Sequence record: MH675927.1
Direction: 5' to 3' (one strand)
Origin: Escherichia phage vB_vPM_PD114
Length of the DNA: 64,000 bases
In this document: piece after piece, positions 51,499-56,527 of the stretch
How the letters are laid out: each line of letters starts with the position of its first letter
Position numbering within the stretch: the stretch's first letter is position 1
Notes under the pieces: generated by a model
Told to the model about the DNA's origin: nothing
Databases searched by the model: none
The model's input: the letters and a program-made list of their open reading frames with translations, nothing else
Position numbers and translations under genes: made by a program

Positions 51499-51511
51499 TT
51501 AAGGAAACAGT

Positions 51512-51622
51512 ATGTCTACAGAAATTATTTTTGGCTTATCTGTTTTTATTGCTATTGTATCTTTTGTATGCGGTTATACACTAGGTTACAGATCAAGAAA
51601 AAATATTGTAAAAACTAGTTGA
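51512..51622 (+). CDS. small hydrophobic peptide (36 aa)
   Basis: SD taaggaaacag before ATG; hydrophobic. Confidence 0.35.
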   Translation: MSTEIIFGLSVFIAIVSFVCGYTLGYRSRKNIVKTS

Positions 51623-51648
51623 CAACATAGCTAGTTATTTGCTAAGAT
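51619..51648 (+). promoter_or_regulatory. sigma70-like promoter (TTGACA-N18-TAAGAT)
   Basis: upstream of 51679 gene. Confidence 0.45.
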
Positions 51649-51678
51649 AAGCACAAGTTAAACAAAAAGGAGAAAACT

Positions 51679-51945
51679 ATGACAGAACGTACTTATGGTA
51701 AAGAATTGATTGAGAAGCACGTATTGATTGATAATAAAGGTGGAGCAATCTTTATTTTTGAACCTGAATCAGTTCTTACTGAAAACGAAAATGGTAGCGT
51801 TAGCCTTAAAACAGAAAGTTTGGTAATTGACTTCCTTGCTCTTCTGGATGAAATGGGGCTTCCGCACGAAGAAGAAGCAGCTATTGCTTTGATTACAGTT
51901 CTTCTGGAGAAACGCGAAGCTGGTGAAATGACCCAGTATGCTTAA
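51679..51945 (+). CDS. hypothetical protein
   Basis: track ORF; SD aaaggagaaaac. Confidence 0.55.
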   Translation: MTERTYGKELIEKHVLIDNKGGAIFIFEPESVLTENENGSVSLKTESLVIDFLALLDEMGLPHEEEAAIALITVLLEKREAGEMTQYA

Positions 51946-51952
51946 TATTCAA

Positions 51953-52028
51953 GGTTCCATAGCTCACTGACGAGAGCGCACACCTCATAAGTGTCGAGGG
52001 CAGGGATTGTAACCCTGGGGAACCACCA
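51953..52028 (+). tRNA. tRNA with CAT anticodon (Met or Ile-lysidine), atypical T-loop
   Basis: acceptor GGTTCC/GGAACC, D-arm GCTC-actgacga-GAGC, anticodon loop CTCATAA, 3' ACCA; T-loop ATTGTAA non-canonical, 7:66 mismatch. Confidence 0.45.
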
Positions 52029-52059
52029 TTTAAAAGGAGATGCTATGCATCTCCTATAT

Positions 52060-52145
52060 GCAAGTGTGGTGGAATTGGTGATACACATTGTGCTTAAAAC
52101 GCAACGCTTAAATGATTGAGGGTTCGAATCCCTCCACTTGCACCA
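52060..52145 (+). tRNA. tRNA-Leu (TAA)
   Basis: 7-bp acceptor GCAAGTG/CACTTGC, anticodon loop CTTAAAA, long variable arm, T-arm GAGGGTTCGAATCCCTC, encoded CCA. Confidence 0.7.
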
Positions 52146-52147
52146 AC

Positions 52148-52253
52148 GCCTAGTAGGGTATTTGGTAATTCCGAGGCCATCAAAGCCTGAAAAATATGTT
52201 AGACCGCTTTGTCTAACTAAATACGAAATATGGTTCGATTCCATAACTAGGCT
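52148..52253 (+). ncRNA. atypical 106-nt tRNA-like RNA (possible TCA anticodon hairpin, long extra arm)
   Basis: perfect 7-bp acceptor GCCTAGT/ACTAGGC and canonical T-arm TATGGTTCGATTCCATA but about 30 nt too long; 7-bp extra hairpin gttagac-cgcttt-gtctaac; fold not computed. Confidence 0.3.
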
Positions 52254-52285
52254 TCAATTTAAATAATAATTTTAGTAAAAATATC

Positions 52286-52314
52286 TTGACATTCACTTAG
52301 TTTTTTGTTATAGT
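52286..52314 (+). promoter_or_regulatory. sigma70-like promoter (TTGACA-N17-TATAGT)
   Basis: about 12 nt upstream of tRNA-like gene at 52326. Confidence 0.5.
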
Positions 52315-52325
52315 TACTGTGAAAA

Positions 52326-52407
52326 CGGGGTGTATCTCACCTGACTTCTAATCAGGCGTTAACCGAGTAATTGGAGTATGCAGGTTCGAATCCTGTCACC
52401 CCGACCA
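52326..52407 (+). ncRNA. atypical tRNA-like RNA with TCT (Arg-type) anticodon hairpin, no canonical D-arm
   Basis: 7/7 acceptor CGGGGTG/CACCCCG, T-arm GCAGGTTCGAATCCTGT, ACCA end; anticodon-like hairpin cctga-CTTCTAA-tcagg begins at position 15. Confidence 0.35.
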
Positions 52408-52425
52408 AAAAGTTTTAAAAACTAC

Positions 52426-52454
52426 TTGACAAGCAAGATAGTTTTATGTTAGAT
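52426..52454 (+). promoter_or_regulatory. sigma70-like promoter (TTGACA-N17-TTAGAT)
   Basis: upstream of tRNA-Ser at 52471. Confidence 0.5.
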
Positions 52455-52470
52455 TTAAAGTATGATAACG

Positions 52471-52560
52471 GGAAGGTAGGGCGCAGCGGTGCGCAACCAG
52501 GTTTGAACCCTGGCCCATTGTAGCGATACGGTGATGGTTCGACTCCATTATCTTCCTCCA
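52471..52560 (+). tRNA. tRNA-Ser (TGA)
   Basis: acceptor GGAAGGT/ATCTTCC (one GU), D-stem GCGC, anticodon stem CCAGG/CCTGG loop TTTGAAC, long variable arm, T-arm, CCA; anchored to ORF track at 52531. Confidence 0.65.
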
Positions 52561-52578
52561 AATTCAACTAGGAGCTTT

Positions 52579-52731
52579 ATGAATTATAAAACTATTGGAC
52601 AGGTTGTTACCGGAGTTAAGATTGTAGATAATAAAGTTGTTTATGAGTATTCTAATCTTCAACAATCTGAAGATGGTAAAAATATTCGTATGGTAAAAGC
52701 AGAACAAAAAGATTCCGGTTGTTTTGAATAA
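52579..52731 (+). CDS. hypothetical protein (50 aa)
   Basis: track ORF 52531..52731 overlaps tRNA-Ser; trimmed to ATG after taggagc. Confidence 0.45.
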   Translation: MNYKTIGQVVTGVKIVDNKVVYEYSNLQQSEDGKNIRMVKAEQKDSGCFE

Positions 52732-52739
52732 TTAAGAAC

Positions 52740-52825
52740 GGTAGATTGGTGAAATGGTAGCCACAACAGTTTGCTAAACTGTCGTCGGAAACGGCGTGTA
52801 GGTTCAAGTCCTACATCTACCGCCA
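52740..52825 (+). tRNA. tRNA-Ser (GCT)
   Basis: perfect acceptor GGTAGAT/ATCTACC, anticodon stem ACAGT/ACTGT loop TTGCTAA, long variable arm, T-arm GTAGGTTCAAGTCCTAC, CCA. Confidence 0.7.
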
Positions 52826-52845
52826 AATTTATGCGAGGAGGATGT

Positions 52846-53226
52846 ATGCCAAGCAATGATTATATGCGGGAATACATGAAAACTCGGTGGCAGAAGCGAA
52901 GAGCTTCCGCAATCCTCCAGCTTGGAGGTAAATGTGTTAATTGTGGGTCTGTAGATGACTTGGAATTTGATCATAAAGATTCAAGCGAGAAGAAGTTTTA
53001 TATTAGTCGAATGAGTTCATGCTCTGAGGCTAAATGGCAGGAAGAACTTGCCAAATGTCAACTTTTGTGCCATGACTGTCACATGAAGAAGACAAGAATA
53101 TCCCAAGACATGGGAAACAGAATTAGAACAACGGTGTGTGTTTGCGGGGCAGTATTTTATAGTACAAAGGCTTATGCTGGACATACACGGTGGTGTAAAG
53201 AGTATGCATCGTTAGCCAAGCGGTAA
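52846..53226 (+). CDS. HNH endonuclease (free-standing, inside tRNA cluster)
   Basis: CVNCGS..DHKD..CHDCH HNH motifs; track ORF 52771..53226 begins inside tRNA-Ser, trimmed to ATG after gaggagg; 3' end overlaps tRNA-Lys by about 21 nt. Confidence 0.65.
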   Translation: MPSNDYMREYMKTRWQKRRASAILQLGGKCVNCGSVDDLEFDHKDSSEKKFYISRMSSCSEAKWQEELAKCQLLCHDCHMKKTRISQDMGNRIRTTVCVCGAVFYSTKAYAGHTRWCKEYASLAKR

Positions 53227-53280
53227 GGCACTTGACTTTTAATCAAGGGAGCGAAGGTTCGAATCCTTCACGATGTACCA
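53206..53280 (+). tRNA. tRNA-Lys (TTT)
   Basis: acceptor GCATCGT/ACGATGT (G1-U72), anticodon stem CTTGA/TCAAG loop CTTTTAA, T-arm GAAGGTTCGAATCCTTC, CCA. Confidence 0.7.
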
Positions 53281-53285
53281 AACAC

Positions 53286-53372
53286 GTAGGTATCGCATAG
53301 CGGCAATTGCTGGAGACTGTAAATCTCCTGCCCTTCGGGGCTTCGTTGGTTCGAGTCCAACTACCTGCACCA
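53286..53372 (+). tRNA. tRNA-Tyr (GTA)
   Basis: acceptor GTAGGTA/TACCTGC, anticodon stem GGAGA/TCTCC loop CTGTAAA, long variable arm, T-arm, CCA. Confidence 0.7.
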
Positions 53373-53379
53373 AATTAAA

Positions 53380-53463
53380 GATGGATTGGCCTAGTGGTTG
53401 GGCGACGGACTGTTAATCCGTGAACGAAAGTTCTAGCAAGGTTCAAATCCTTGATCCATCGCC
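53380..53463 (+). tRNA. type II (long variable arm) tRNA with GTT anticodon (Asn-decoding)
   Basis: perfect acceptor GATGGAT/ATCCATC, anticodon stem ACGGA/TCCGT loop CTGTTAA, extra arm gaac-gaaa-gttc, T-arm CAAGGTTCAAATCCTTG, CCA. Confidence 0.5.
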
Positions 53464-53471
53464 AGAATTAT

Positions 53472-53548
53472 GGACTTGTAGAGTTAAGGTAAACCCTCAG
53501 TCGCAAAGAGGCTTCTGGAATTGCAGGTATCGAATCCTGCCGAGTCCA
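53472..53548 (+). ncRNA. degenerate tRNA-like element
   Basis: acceptor GGACTTG/CGAGTCC and 8-nt T-loop GCAGG-TATCGAAT-CCTGC but no canonical 5-7-5 anticodon arm; no CCA. Confidence 0.3.
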
Positions 53549-53554
53549 ATTATT

Positions 53555-53629
53555 GCTCCTATCGTATAACGGCTATTACGGTTGCCTTGTAAGCAACTTA
53601 TCAGGGTTCGAGTCCTTGTGGGAGCACCA
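53555..53629 (+). tRNA. tRNA-Thr (TGT)
   Basis: acceptor GCTCCTA/TGGGAGC, D-arm GTA..TAC, anticodon stem GTTGC/GCAAC loop CTTGTAA, T-arm, CCA. Confidence 0.7.
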
Positions 53630-53652
53630 ATTTTAACTCTAAAGGAGTGTAT

Positions 53653-53976
53653 GTGACAGAAAAAGAGTTAGAGAAATATTTTAATATCAATGTTTTCGAT
53701 GGTTTTGATGATATTGAAGATGTTGAAAGATATTATGAAGTAGAGTTAGATAAGGATAACATTGTAATTCTTTCTGCCACTTATGATTGTGCATATTATG
53801 AAGGTGAATCTCACGTTTATTTTTATGATATGAAAACATCTTTGTTTTATGAAGTACACGCATATCATTGTTCTTGTTATGGTTTAGAAGGTCAGTGGGA
53901 ACCTGAAGAAATAGGTGATTTGAGCTTTACGGTTGCATATCTAAACAGACGTGGTGCATCTACTATTTTAAAATAA
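53653..53976 (+). CDS. hypothetical protein
   Basis: track ORF 53647..53976; probable start at second GTG after aaaggag. Confidence 0.5.
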   Translation: MTEKELEKYFNINVFDGFDDIEDVERYYEVELDKDNIVILSATYDCAYYEGESHVYFYDMKTSLFYEVHAYHCSCYGLEGQWEPEEIGDLSFTVAYLNRRGASTILK

Positions 53977-53990
53977 ATATTAAAAGCCTC

Positions 53991-54020
53991 TTGACAAAGG
54001 GGCTAATAATATGTTAGAGT
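53991..54020 (+). promoter_or_regulatory. sigma70-like promoter (TTGACA-N17-TTAGAG)
   Basis: upstream of tRNA-Gly. Confidence 0.5.
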
Positions 54021-54031
54021 AATATTGTTAA

Positions 54032-54106
54032 GCGGGTATAGTGTTAATGGTAGCATATGAGGTTTCCACCCTCCAGGTGCAGGTTCAAGTCCTGTTACTC
54101 GCTCCA
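54032..54106 (+). tRNA. tRNA-Gly (TCC)
   Basis: acceptor GCGGGTA/TACTCGC (one GU), anticodon loop TTTCCAC, T-arm GCAGGTTCAAGTCCTGT, CCA. Confidence 0.7.
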
Positions 54107-54537
54107 AGATTATTTAAATGGAATCGCTAGAGAAAATTTCTCTTTTCGCTCATGGTTTTCTCCTTCAAACTCTAGCGGTTCTTTTTAAGTGATTTTTTAG
54201 TTTATTGGAGATTCACTGCCTTAGTGTGAGCTAAAATCGAGGAGCCATCGAACTGTCTGATTAATGATTTGCGAATCATTATAGTTTTAAGACCCCGGCA
54301 GTTTTATGGTGTACCTCTTGAATGTGAATGATGACGGGTTTATGGTTATCCTGGTCGTTAAATATCCAAAAACCTATGTTCCCCTTGAGGGCTTGCGCAG
54401 GCAATGCCAATAAGTCCTGCATTTTCATTTAAAAGAGAATTTATAATGGAAAAAGATGAACTTAAGTATGCTAAGCCTCTGGCTTCTGCTGCACGAAAAG
54501 CAGTTCGTCACTTTGTGGTAACACTGAAGTAATTTAT
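54107..54537 (+). other. structured noncoding spacer inside tRNA cluster (candidate small RNAs)
   Basis: 8-bp stem cgctagag/ctctagcg then U-tract (approx 54125-54190); hairpin taatgatt-tgcg-aatcatta (approx 54259-54278); gcagg..cctgc hairpin plus U-tract (approx 54393-54430); no convincing ORF. Confidence 0.35.
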
Positions 54538-54612
54538 TGGAGATTAGCCTAGTGGGAAGGCAACGGCCTTTGAAGTCGTGATGACTAGGTTCGATTCCTA
54601 GATCTCCAGCCA
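54538..54612 (+). tRNA. tRNA-Gln (TTG)
   Basis: perfect acceptor TGGAGAT/ATCTCCA, D-stem GCC/GGC, anticodon loop CTTTGAA, T-arm CTAGGTTCGATTCCTAG, CCA. Confidence 0.7.
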
Positions 54613-54619
54613 AGATTTA

Positions 54620-54695
54620 CAGTGCGTAGCGCAGTTGGTAGCGTGGGAGCCTTGGACGCTTCAGGTCGCAGGTTCGAGTCCTGCCGCACTGACCA
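54620..54695 (+). tRNA. tRNA-Pro (TGG)
   Basis: perfect acceptor CAGTGCG/CGCACTG, D-arm GCGC-AGTTGGTA-GCGT, anticodon loop CTTGGAC, T-arm GCAGGTTCGAGTCCTGC, CCA. Confidence 0.75.
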
Positions 54696-54700
54696 AATTT

Positions 54701-54775
54701 GCAGAGATAGCTGAGACGGATTAGTGCTACCCTGAAAAGGTAGAAAGGATGGATCGTTACCATCTCTCTGCACCA
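54701..54775 (+). tRNA. tRNA-Phe (GAA)
   Basis: perfect acceptor GCAGAGA/TCTCTGC, anticodon stem CTACC/GGTAG loop CTGAAAA, T-arm GATGGATCGTTACCATC, CCA. Confidence 0.7.
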
Positions 54776-54852
54776 AATAACACCATCCAAGGAGTAGACT
54801 TGGTTAACTGTCAATAGCACATTGAGGCTTCTTACAGTGGTGTACTTATTAT

Positions 54853-54937
54853 GGCTAAGTGGTGGAATGGTATACACGATACGCTTAGAACGTATTGCCC
54901 CAAGGGATTGTGAGTTCGAGTCTCACCTTAGCTACCA
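54853..54937 (+). tRNA. tRNA-Leu (TAG)
   Basis: acceptor GGCTAAG/CTTAGCT (G1-U72), anticodon stem ATACG/CGTAT loop CTTAGAA, long variable arm, T-arm GTGAGTTCGAGTCTCAC, CCA. Confidence 0.7.
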
Positions 54938-54952
54938 AATTATTACAGATTG

Positions 54953-55031
54953 CGCGGGATAGAGGAGTCTGGTCGTCCTCGCCAGTTTCATATGCTGGAG
55001 ATCATCGGTTCAAATCCGATTCCCGCCTCCA
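54953..55031 (+). tRNA. tRNA-Met (CAT), possible initiator type
   Basis: acceptor CGCGGGA/TCCCGCC with 1:72 mismatch, D-stem GAGG/CCTC, anticodon loop TTCATAT, T-arm ATCGGTTCAAATCCGAT, CCA. Confidence 0.55.
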
Positions 55032-55089
55032 CTAAATACCTCCCTTCTGGTGTAATGATTAAATTACATTGACACCTCAAGGAACTCAT

Positions 55090-55172
55090 AGCTGGGTAGA
55101 TTTAAAAGAGTATGGTACTCAATATGGCTCCAAACCATAGATCAAGGGGTTCGATTCCTCACCTTGCTGCCA
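55090..55172 (+). ncRNA. tRNA-Trp-like (CCA anticodon) with irregular 5' region
   Basis: anticodon arm TATGG-CTCCAAA-CCATA, D-like arm GAG-TATGGTA-CTC, T-loop TTCGATT, 3' CCTTGCT-G-CCA; only 6/7 acceptor candidate, separated from D-arm by about 11 nt. Confidence 0.35.
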
Positions 55173-55177
55173 ATTAT

Positions 55178-55253
55178 TGTGGTATCGTACAGATGGTTAG
55201 TACACTCGACCGATAATCGAGAAACAACGGTTCGACTCCGTTTACCACGACCA
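55178..55253 (+). tRNA. tRNA-Ile (GAT)
   Basis: 76 nt; acceptor TGTGGTA/TACCACG (U1-G72), D-stem GTAC, anticodon stem CTCGA/TCGAG loop CCGATAA, T-arm AACGGTTCGACTCCGTT, CCA. Confidence 0.6.
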
Positions 55254-55366
55254 AACTCCGTGCCAGCGGTGTCTTCGAAGAACAAGCCTAGTTCCTTCTG
55301 AGATGGAGGGGTGCGACTCCTTAACGCACAATTCTAATAAAGCATTTCAACTTAACAGTATTTATT

Positions 55367-55390
55367 AGCCTCCTTATTGGAGGCTTTTTG
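55367..55390 (+). terminator. rho-independent terminator closing the tRNA operon
   Basis: agcctcc-ttatt-ggaggct hairpin followed by TTTTTG. Confidence 0.6.
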
Positions 55391-55408
55391 CTATTTATTG
55401 AATAAAAC

Positions 55409-55437
55409 TTGACTTATTATTTTTTATATGTTATCCT
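55409..55437 (+). promoter_or_regulatory. sigma70-like promoter (TTGACT-N17-TATCCT)
   Basis: upstream of 55458 gene. Confidence 0.45.
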
Positions 55438-55457
55438 TAAGTAAGGAGGTGCATATT

Positions 55458-55748
55458 ATGCCTAAATTGAAAAGAGGTCGAGGTAGACCTACAGCCGAAA
55501 TGCAACAGATTTATGCTATGGATGCTGCACAGGCGCAAGTAAAAGAAATTTTTGCTGGTCGTTATTTAGATGCTATGCGTTACATTGCAGATCTTGTTGT
55601 AGATGAAAAGGCTTCTGCTAATATTAAGTTGACTGCTTCTAAGATCATCAAAGAACAAGTAGAAGAATGGCTGGAAGAACATTATGAATCTATGGAAGAA
55701 GAAGATATTCTTCCAGAAAATTCTCCCCCTCAAAAAATCGTTATCTAA
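55458..55748 (+). CDS. hypothetical protein with basic N-terminus (small terminase candidate)
   Basis: track ORF 55428..55748 trimmed to ATG after taaggagg; MPKLKRGRGRP basic start; function is a positional guess. Confidence 0.5.
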   Translation: MPKLKRGRGRPTAEMQQIYAMDAAQAQVKEIFAGRYLDAMRYIADLVVDEKASANIKLTASKIIKEQVEEWLEEHYESMEEEDILPENSPPQKIVI

Positions 55749-55793
55749 TTCTCCTCTCTTGGGAACTTTGTTCCCCCCTCTCCTTGTTAATTA

Positions 55794-55830
55794 ACACCCC
55801 TTTCCGAAAGGTTAGGGGGTTTTTTATTTA
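55794..55830 (+). terminator. rho-independent terminator
   Basis: acccc..ggggg hairpin followed by TTTTTTATTT; preceded by gggaac-tttg-ttccc hairpin. Confidence 0.5.
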
Positions 55831-55886
55831 TACCTATTGCTTTTATATATGTTTTTATGATATGATTAATACAGGAGGACTATAAA

Positions 55887-56060
55887 ATGAGAAACTATGT
55901 AGCTAAACACGATTTCAATAGGGCTTCTTATCACAGAGATAAGAAGAACAGTTATTCGCGTAAATGGGATCTGGAGGAAGAATTAGATTATGATTACAGA
56001 AGAACAATGGAAGGAGATTTTGGAGAATGCACAACCGATGGTAGTGAAGAAGATAGTTAA
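55887..56060 (+). CDS. small hypothetical protein (57 aa)
   Basis: SD aggagg before ATG; below track cutoff. Confidence 0.4.
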   Translation: MRNYVAKHDFNRASYHRDKKNSYSRKWDLEEELDYDYRRTMEGDFGECTTDGSEEDS

Positions 56061-56095
56061 TAATTCACCAAGTCTCCCTAAAGTAAAATTTAAAG

Positions 56096-56527
56096 ATGAT
56101 GATACTGATTATGTTAATAAACCTACTGAAGAATAAATGGGTTAGGTATTTTGTTCTTATTATAGCATTGTTTGGTGGTTTGTATATTGGTTTAAACAAA
56201 TTACACGATGATGTGTATGCACAAGGCTACAACGCAGGTGTTGCTAAACAAGAACAAATATTACAACAAAACCAAATTAAAGCAAAACAGCAATTCGATA
56301 TTTTACAAGCAAAAGCAGATTCAGAAAGATCTAAATTGAATGAAAAAATTCATTCATTAACGAAAGAAAAAAATGATCTTCTTATACAATTGGATAAGAA
56401 GAGTAATAACATAACACAAGAGAGAATAGATTATGCGAAAACATCTTCTGGCGCTATGTCTTGTTTTAGCCCTAATGATGACGGGTTGCGCATCATCAAC
56501 AACAGCTTCCCAGCCTCTACTGATTGA
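56096..56527 (+). CDS. Rz-like inner-membrane spanin
   Basis: N-terminal transmembrane helix then Gln/Lys-rich coiled coil; contains embedded Rz1-like ORF. Confidence 0.55.
   Translation: MMILIMLINLLKNKWVRYFVLIIALFGGLYIGLNKLHDDVYAQGYNAGVAKQEQILQQNQIKAKQQFDILQAKADSERSKLNEKIHSLTKEKNDLLIQLDKKSNNITQERIDYAKTSSGAMSCFSPNDDGLRIINNSFPASTD

Follow-up and report, generated by a model that had tools for sequence, protein, structure and literature searches.

The genes for two transfer RNAs (tRNAs), tRNA-Gly and tRNA-Gln, of Escherichia phage vB_vPM_PD114 are separated by a spacer of 431 nucleotides (nt), at positions 54107-54537 of the 64,000-nt stretch of record MH675927.1 analysed here (the window). 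From its sequence, this spacer appears to consist of two unrelated parts, a native hairpin and imported T4-type DNA, and we consider it likely that the import is recent, is circularly permuted and carries a highly conserved, apparently undescribed multi-hairpin RNA. The phage is a phi92/muut-like coliphage (Stephanstirmvirinae, Justusliebigvirus), sharing 99.8-100% identity with phi92, muut, SD2 and PD06 around the spacer. An earlier annotation made from the letters alone (the original prediction) had described a noncoding spacer with three strong inverted repeats. All three were located: cgctagag (54125-54132)/ctctagcg (54170-54177), followed by gttcttttt; the perfect hairpin taatgatt (54262-54269)/aatcatta (54274-54281) with the loop tgcg; and gcagg (54397-54401)/cctgc (54416-54420), followed by attttcattt. 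The spacer is also essentially noncoding, its longest open reading frame (ORF) having at most 49 aa and RIII homology being found in one short ORF (54446-54532). What the original prediction did not recognise is that T-even DNA of recent import makes up about three quarters of the spacer and includes two of the three hairpins.

The composition of the spacer was resolved by BLAST against T4 and against the insert-free sibling 92CQ, which gave four alignments: 1) Positions 54198-54454 match T4 locus L001 1583-1838 with 97.7% identity, a block comprising the rIII stop codon, the entire rIII-30.9 intergenic region and the first codons of 30.9. 2) Positions 54448-54545 match L001 1501-1598 with 99.0% identity, covering the last 85 nt of rIII plus 13 nt. 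3) and 4) Phage 92CQ aligns with 53900-54213 and then with 54533-54700, giving the empty site. In the insert, the order of the T4 blocks is reversed: the complete rIII-30.9 intercistronic region comes first and the final 83 nt of rIII come second. The 13-mer TTTATTGGAGATT that flanks the insert is present as a single copy in 92CQ, where the first 8 nt of tRNA-Gln lie within it, and as a single copy in T4, immediately 3' of the rIII stop codon. The two T4 blocks are closed at ATGG-AAAAAG (54446-54455), where the T4 30.9 start ATGGCAAAA and the rIII sequence CAGGAAAAAG have GG in common, or agree at 6/7 positions. Identity to Tequatrovirus AR1, RB27, GiZh and teqhad is 99.7% over 54201-54545, and identity to AR1 is 100% over 54214-54446. 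Since rIII, a long spacer and 30.9 follow one another in every T4-type genus (Tevenvirinae) examined, the T-even order is ancestral and the phi92-type order derived.

Fifty-five Justusliebigvirus records cover the site; 16 of them (~12 distinct phages) have the insert and 39 have the empty site. The contiguous closing junction occurs only in phi92-like records, the two halves lying 212-490 bp apart in all T-evens. Four records, A150, A145, C3 and A110a (L035, MG065639 and three sisters), have junctions identical to those of the window, with an internal allele of another T-even (ESh25 type) that has a 44-nt extra stem region; in these A150-type records the small ORF is frameshifted. As these relatives combine the same junctions with a different T-even internal allele, we read the data as one integration, after which alleles were probably exchanged with co-infecting T-evens through the patch held in common. 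The four records are labelled "Campylobacter phage", UNVERIFIED, and are unannotated; they are Justusliebigvirus genomes nearly identical to those of E. coli phages, and the host label seems doubtful.

The insert has the features of an integration product, namely permuted donor sequence flanked by a direct repeat of a crossover site of which the donor and the empty recipient each have a single copy. In the route that we propose, a circle of ~331 bp (L001 1503-1833) would have been closed at the GG microhomology between the 30.9 start and rIII, and would have integrated by a single crossover within the 13-bp identity during a mixed infection. A circle, or an equivalent tandem duplication or template switch, would be the simplest route, and our inference of a circular intermediate is based solely on topology. 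Among the sampled donors, a tandem duplication was ruled out, as the contiguous junction is present in no T-even record. By our estimate, hundreds of 13-bp identities are expected by chance between two AT-rich genomes of ~150 kb; the integration site itself needs no special explanation.

The RNA structure of the insert was examined in an alignment of 24 distinct versions, using RNAalifold and explicit pair counts, with column shuffles and slid controls. The alignment consists of near-invariant blocks interrupted by indels of 1, 2, 5, ~55 and ~150 nt. Because these are not multiples of three, the rIII-30.9 region is not coding; a coding role was rejected, given the 1-nt indels and the lack of an ORF conserved across the variants. 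Five elements, here called H0, D1, D2, H3 and H4, could be delineated (Table 1). The largest, D1, has 25 pairs with 99% of cells paired, and 6 pairs and 16 cells are changed on both sides. None of 500 column shuffles matched the observed pairing, cell count or covariation score, and slid controls were paired at 28-63%. The compensatory changes in D1 include CCGU/ACGG vs CCAU/AUGG; ACUGUC/GACAGU vs AUUGUC/GACAAU and CUGUU/AACAG; and UAAUGAUU/AAUCAUUA vs UAGUGAUU/GAUCACUA and UAUCGAUU/AAUCGGUA. A covariance model of D1 derived solely from sequences of T-evens and Vequintavirinae, and thus free of any phi92-like sequence, matched 54232-54323 (+) over its full length (117.8 bits, E 8e-30), and this is the only match in the 64 kb of the window.

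In D2, the core pairs vary as AU10/UA8/GC1 and CG15/GC4 across genera including Marfavirus, Muldoonvirus and Kanagawavirus; 18 cells are changed on both sides, a number reached by none of 500 shuffles. The stem of H4 is GCAGG/CCTGC in the window, GCGGG/CCTGC in L033 and GGGAG(C)/(G)CTCCC in PEi26, Marfa, L050 and L056. The H3 stem is invariant and showed no covariation. The helices of D1, D2 and H4 are thus supported, as RNA of the + strand, by compensatory changes. Three G-U pairs bear on the strand: 13-88 and 19-82 are fixed in all sequences, and 27-74 is UG in 11/20. Since the fixed pairs would be A-C mismatches on the other strand, the RNA should lie on the + strand, which is the tRNA sense here and the messenger RNA (mRNA) sense in T4. 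The hairpins called in the original prediction are conserved, the covariation favours RNA on the tRNA-sense strand, and a structured non-tRNA RNA within a tRNA cluster is a fair description of the spacer.

Several further candidates in this region were discarded. A long-range helix CCGTC/GACGG was rejected, as the A/G polymorphism at 54247 covaries with 54316 (CCAT/ATGG vs CCGT/ACGG), which supports helix P2 of D1. A pseudoknot GGTT/AACC in D2 is possible and is invariant; neither it nor a pairing of the D1 bulge ACCYCG with CGRGGU of D2 is claimed, such tertiary pairings being invariant or poorly supported. The promoter-like sequence TTGAAT-N17-TATGGT in D1/D2 is divided by a variable insertion in most T-evens and was also rejected.

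Table 1. Features of the tRNA-Gly/tRNA-Gln spacer and related elements; positions refer to the window unless another locus is named
Feature	Position	Strand	Remarks
T-even (Tequatrovirus) insert	54214-54545 (equivalently 54201-54532)	+	332 bp, circularly permuted
13-bp direct repeat TTTATTGGAGATT, left copy	54201-54213	+	Putative crossover site
13-bp direct repeat TTTATTGGAGATT, right copy	54533-54545	+	Overlaps first 8 nt of tRNA-Gln
H0	54214-54226	+	Hairpin CACTG-cct-TAGTG; 3' of rIII stop codon in T4
D1	54239-54317	+	Four stacked helices, P1-P4; P4 is the taatgatt-tgcg-aatcatta hairpin (54262-54281)
D2	54329-54374	+	Hairpin TGATGACG.GG / CC.GTCGTTA; conserved loop GGTTATCC; tail AAA..AAACC
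H3	54381-54391	+	Hairpin CCCC-ttga-GGG; position conserved, loop variable
H4	54397-54430	+	Hairpin gcagg...cctgc (54397-54420) and tail ATTTTCATTT; stem covaries
Chimeric ORF	54446-54532	+	28 codons; 30.9 start codon fused to last ~25-27 codons and stop codon of rIII
Native Stephanstirmvirinae trailer hairpin	54108-54194	+	Long imperfect stem, includes cgctagag/ctctagcg arms; T-run after stem
Sigma-70-like promoter TTGACA-18-TAGAGT with TG	53991-54020	+	Consensus match only; upstream of tRNA-Gly
tRNA-Gly (tcc)	54032-54106	+	5' border of spacer; ARAGORN, Rfam
tRNA-Gln (ttg)	54538-54612	+	3' border of spacer; ARAGORN, Rfam
M150	L024 600-741 (JS98); also L025, L045, L046, L048, L050, L056, L059, L062		

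Within the T-evens, D1 is 97-99% identical between T4 and RB69, JS98, P8, PSD9 and ESCO10, and in the same comparisons rIII is 83-86% and 30.9 is 74-92% identical. The element is present as one copy in each of 767 phage records. A bacterial origin was rejected, as the 21-nt core pattern was found in 0/185,579 bacterial genomes. In T4, a scan placed the segment inside the rIII-30.9 transcription unit as an intercistronic region, with a terminator and the next early promoter only after 30.9 and neither a promoter nor a terminator in the rIII-30.9 spacer itself. No feature is annotated in the ~245-nt rIII-30.9 gap in the T4 records examined, and gp30.9 belongs to a PHROG of unknown function. A literature search for RNA in this spacer or for phi92 gp113 returned nothing relevant, with subscription-journal T4 literature poorly covered, so that an earlier description is possible. 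Rfam 15 was scanned at gathering thresholds over the whole window and permissively (E <= 10) over 51500-56500, as well as at homologous loci. The spacer has no match even at E <= 10, only tRNAs were found near it, and the homologous regions of JS98, SHFML-11, RB69, A7_1, W70, L032 and PEi26 have none. Neither ARAGORN nor the tRNA model RF00005 detected a tRNA or transfer-messenger RNA inside the spacer.

The native part of the spacer, directly 3' of tRNA-Gly, is a hairpin of ~87 nt (z = -5.06; 0/200 dinucleotide shuffles fold as well), also present in the insert-free siblings. Its loop (54133-54169, 37 nt) is pyrimidine-rich and nearly invariant. The same architecture follows tRNA-Gly in Klebsiella phage phi1_175008 (z = -4.05) and Phapecoctavirus ESCO5 (z = -5.16). 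The stem is GGAAUCGCUAGAG/CUCUAGCGGUUCU in the window, GGAAUGUUAGAA/UUCUAGCAUUCC in phi1_175008 and GGGUUGCCAGAA/UUCUGGUUGCCC in ESCO5; the loop ..AAACUUUCUCUUUUCGCUCAUGGUUUUCUCCUUC.. is almost unchanged across these three Stephanstirmvirinae lineages while the stem sequences differ. With three lineages, this combination of stem divergence and loop constancy is suggestive, not statistical, evidence of a conserved native hairpin. The loop contains CUCCUUC, which we read as complementary to a Shine-Dalgarno sequence. The hairpin is most likely a processing, termination or stability hairpin in the tRNA precursor, and its loop may in addition function as a small RNA.

Relatives of the imported elements were found beside tRNA genes in other phages. 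In Phapecoctavirus ESCO5, a 50-nt mini-D1 (P1 + P2, with CCGC/GCGG compensation; 39.5 bits, E 5e-8, to the D1 model) lies between tRNA-Gln and tRNA-Pro, with an H0-like motif 5' of it (the two together at L071 587-663). This H0-like + mini-D1 arrangement is the standard form in ~46 Phapecoctavirus records, and some Tequatroviruses have it as an allele (PinkRuby, G50, teqskov and IME339). The Vequintavirinae phages A7_1 (L005 2501-2637 and ~2847-2938) and W70 (L017 1501-1600), both Irish isolates, have a ~80%-identical D1 heading the tRNA cluster, accompanied in A7_1 by D2; these copies end at the 30.9-type Shine-Dalgarno motif AAGAGAATTTA, with a tRNA directly next. The H0 motif, GAGTCACTACC(G)TTAAGTGTGAAGTTAAAAA, of ~33 nt and with little structure of its own, is near-unchanged in tRNA spacers of unrelated phage families: it lies between tRNA-Gly and tRNA-Gln in Cronobacter phage CR3 (Certrevirus; L072 701-734) and between tRNA-Ile and tRNA-Met in the T5-like phage TrudiGerster (L073 701-739), and is also present in T4-type rIII-30.9 spacers (Gravdalen).

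A further noncoding module of ~140 nt, M150, which is absent from the window, is part of the rIII-30.9 spacer in many genera of T4-type phages. It was found in 407 phage records, mostly at >=91% identity, with hosts including Klebsiella, Enterobacter and Edwardsiella. RNAalifold predicted 43 pairs, 19 of them with compensatory changes, and there is no Rfam match; M150 looks like a separate, undescribed structured RNA. The possibility that it is a tRNA relic was rejected, as ARAGORN finds no tRNA in it. Module order varies between genera, and we conclude that these are separable RNA modules that recur beside tRNA genes. A wider proposal, tentative and in our view doubtful as a whole, is that H0, D1, D2 and M150 belong to an undescribed modular RNA family, more constrained than the neighbouring genes, that occupies T4-type rIII-30.9 spacers and the tRNA-cluster spacers of unrelated coliphages, is reshuffled between genera, and is passed from one phage family to another on short DNA circles with a preference for landing next to tRNA genes. 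If this were true, the modules would have a general role in infection as trans-acting or processing RNAs, e.g. in controlling host RNases, ribosomes or defence systems, and the window would preserve a very fresh example of such a transfer.

For the spacer itself, we propose that transcription from the sigma-70-like promoter upstream of tRNA-Gly, a likely source of transcripts entering the spacer, or from farther upstream, runs through tRNA-Gly. The native hairpin would then act as a processing, partial-termination or stabilising element, read-through would make the T-even RNA (H0, D1, D2, H3 and H4), which is co-oriented with the tRNA genes, part of the tRNA precursor, and the 3' end of the spacer RNA would be generated by RNase P at tRNA-Gln. 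Our best guess is that the T-even RNA is a self-contained module acting in processing, stability or protein binding and not as a messenger, since its structure is kept away from 30.9 (here, in A7_1 and in ESCO5), the modules are reshuffled, and its constraint exceeds that of the neighbouring genes.

Several observations weigh against parts of this reading. Single-sequence folding of the insert is unremarkable (z = -1.3), and the case for an insert RNA therefore rests on comparative evidence; that covariation comes from close relatives and comprises few, lineage-shared events, so that the shuffle statistics overstate independence. As to the route, a tandem duplication in an unsampled donor combined with a double crossover, or two replication template switches, would yield the same product, and the microhomology closing the circle is only 2 bp, or 6/7 matching positions. 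As to expression, a consensus scan found neither a promoter nor a canonical terminator inside the spacer, the native hairpin and its T-run could halt many transcripts before the insert, and 39 sibling records get by without it.

The absence of the insert from those siblings also fits an account in which it is a neutral scar: an accidental product of illegitimate recombination, tolerated in a noncoding tRNA spacer and functionless here, whether transcribed or not. Its junctions ignore the borders of genes and RNA modules, taking in a broken 30.9 start and the tail of rIII, the A150-type phages have a frameshift in the fusion ORF, and 13-bp identities of the kind used are expected in the hundreds by our estimate given above. 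We regard this account as quite possible, if short of probable. It has to contend with the preservation of an intact insert (99-100% identity) among ~12 distinct isolates collected in several countries and over several decades; with one lineage having swapped in another full-length T-even allele without erosion; and with relatives of H0, D1 and D2 adjoining tRNA genes in A7_1/W70, Phapecoctavirus, CR3 and a T5-like phage, a repetition that is hard to credit to accident.

The original prediction had seen in the spacer one or two small transcripts ending at intrinsic terminators. On this account, independent small RNAs with their own starts would end at ctctagcg plus the T-run and at gcagg/cctgc plus ATTTTCATTT. 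Both hairpins are indeed conserved and have U-rich tracts 3' of them, the nearest promoter-like site lies 5' of tRNA-Gly, and in Erwinia phage Gravdalen the H4 equivalent GGCTCTA.../...TAGAGCTC, followed by TTTTATT, is terminator-like in shape. Yet 54107-54537 contains 0 promoter-like sites in a scan for a sigma-70-like consensus, phage-specific promoter classes being outside the tool, and 0 canonical terminators, defined as a GC-rich stem of >=5 bp and a loop of 3-8 nt followed by >=5 T in 8; none was found in 53600-54700 either. The loops of the native hairpin and H4, 37 and 14 nt, are beyond the usual terminator range, and in T4 the same region lies inside the rIII-30.9 unit, with the real terminator and the next early promoter after 30.9. 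We therefore consider independent small RNAs unlikely.

The chimeric ORF invites a different explanation, in which a peptide of 28 aa (or 42 aa) from the RIII C-terminus, translated from the 30.9 ribosome-binding site, modulates lysis timing or ribosomal protein S1. The ORF does possess the translation-initiation region of T4 30.9, it aligns with RIII family residues 60-86 (PHROG 1457; E 7.6e-12), and RIII binds S1 and the holin (PMC9409239). In public annotations the ORF is named "lysis inhibition; accessory protein" (PHI92_gene_113 in NC_023693/FR775895, NC_052653 and SD2000024). However, a full-length RIII antiholin (~82-86 aa) is not encoded, only the final third of the 82-aa protein (profile positions 60-86) being present; no Pfam match was obtained for gp30.9, RIII or the fusion ORF; the fusion was born at a 2-bp microhomology; and the far stronger conservation of the noncoding part would be left unexplained. 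Since its frame is broken in the four A150-type records, the fusion ORF is probably a by-product, and a functional peptide is very unlikely. The phi92 gp113 is a gene fragment whose annotated name is misleading and should not be taken to indicate a lysis function.

More improbable still is that the segment acts as DNA, e.g. as an origin of replication, a hotspot of recombination or the target of a homing endonuclease, with the inverted repeats serving as protein-binding or cruciform sites. Such a role would account for the extreme conservation, which extends to unpaired stretches, and for the repeated involvement of the segment in recombination events, but not for helices maintained by compensatory changes or for fixed G-U pairs, which in a cruciform or on the opposite strand would become A-C mismatches, and no nuclease gene adjoins the segment in T4. 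Contamination of a phi92-like assembly with T4 reads is a negligible prospect, for although T-even phages were co-isolated in the same studies, identical junctions occur in 16 records from independent laboratories, phi92 itself included, and a permuted order with a precise 13-bp duplication is unlike the product of mis-assembly.

Other features of the surrounding tRNA cluster were noted in passing. A tRNA call by Rfam at 52326-52404 (+) (40.0 bits vs a gathering score of 29) was not reported by ARAGORN, and a 109-aa ORF at 53647-53976 (+), encoding a hypothetical protein homologous to muut_9, lies inside the cluster between tRNA-Thr and tRNA-Gly. Two weaker matches, either of which may reflect chance or a decayed gene, are a tRNA-like sequence at 55109-55169 (+) between tRNA-Met and tRNA-Ile (22.9 bits vs a threshold of 29) and a RyhB-like sequence at 55338-55392 (+) just beyond the cluster (27.6 bits vs a threshold of 55).

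Under the preferred reading, that of a native hairpin joined to a permuted T4-type import with a structured RNA, the insert is a rare sequence-level footprint of DNA movement between unrelated virulent phages, from a donor with heavily modified DNA to a recipient of another subfamily. It implies that a circle or duplication measuring a few hundred bp used a 13-bp homology and that alleles were later exchanged within the stretch now shared; such patches could become starting points for more recombination among phage families co-infecting E. coli. Even in T4, the most thoroughly studied of phages, the rIII-30.9 gap holds helices kept by compensatory change, with D1 more conserved than both flanking genes, and so provides a model system with a concrete candidate RNA that can be tested.

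The proposed route resembles the mini-circle shuffling described for PeSL cassettes, in which excision from T4-type genomes yields circles measuring a few hundred bp, whose re-insertion elsewhere is proposed (Arbiol et al. 2010, PMC2839356; Comeau et al. 2014, PMC4122927). In T4-type phages, DNA circles of ~400-1400 bp arise by recombination between short intergenic homologies, with crossovers near the Shine-Dalgarno sequence and ATG (PMC2839356). The permuted 332-bp insert with its duplicated crossover site is the predicted outcome of the integration of such a circle, and one of its breaks falls at the 30.9 ATG. There are also differences: the recipient here is an unrelated phage subfamily and not another T4-type genome, the homologies (13 bp and the GG microhomology) are not PeSL repeats, and the cargo is a noncoding RNA region with a gene fragment, not an ORFan. 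A PeSL comprises a stem-loop, then an early promoter, then a Shine-Dalgarno sequence and ATG, the promoter consensus of the T4/PST type being TTTACW-N17-TAYWAT (PMC4122927). The segment itself was rejected as a PeSL cassette, as this consensus is missing from it in both the window and T4. A PeSL-like cassette does bound the rIII-30.9 unit in T4, where 30.9 is followed by a strong terminator, GAGGACTCC-TTCG-GGAGTCCTT with a T-run (L001 2010-2031), and then by an early-type promoter, TTTACA-17-TAGTAT (L001 2061-2089).

The likeness to the stable RNAs of the T4 tRNA region that the original prediction drew holds for position but not for homology. Like T4 rnaC and rnaD (species 1 and 2), the elements of the spacer are non-tRNA structured RNAs co-located and co-oriented with phage tRNA genes, and the tRNA cluster of A7_1 holds both a D1-D2 copy and an rnaD homologue, the latter just 3' of tRNA-Met (91% identity over 44 nt and 96% over 25 nt). 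In contrast, rnaC and rnaD have only chance matches of 7-10 nt to the element and nothing significant in the window, and the T4 copy of the element lies ~60 kb from the T4 tRNA cluster, within mRNA.

Regulatory RNAs of tRNA spacers, such as E. coli 3'ETS-leuZ, and intercistronic processing hairpins, such as the RNase III sites of T7, are freed from polycistronic precursors by processing enzymes. Their likeness to the native hairpin and D1 is architectural only, lying in irregular hairpins of ~20-25 bp between functional units. GOLLD and ROOL are large phage-associated noncoding RNAs that often adjoin tRNAs, and both are in Rfam. The modules described here share with them a conserved structure and a frequent position beside tRNA genes, but differ in measuring ~45-140 nt each, in being rearranged between genera and in matching no Rfam model. 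Both the RNA and its transfer are thus of known kinds, a structured noncoding RNA of phages and a circle-type transfer at short homology; what sets this case apart is that the footprint is unusually clean and that a model phage carries the candidate RNA family.

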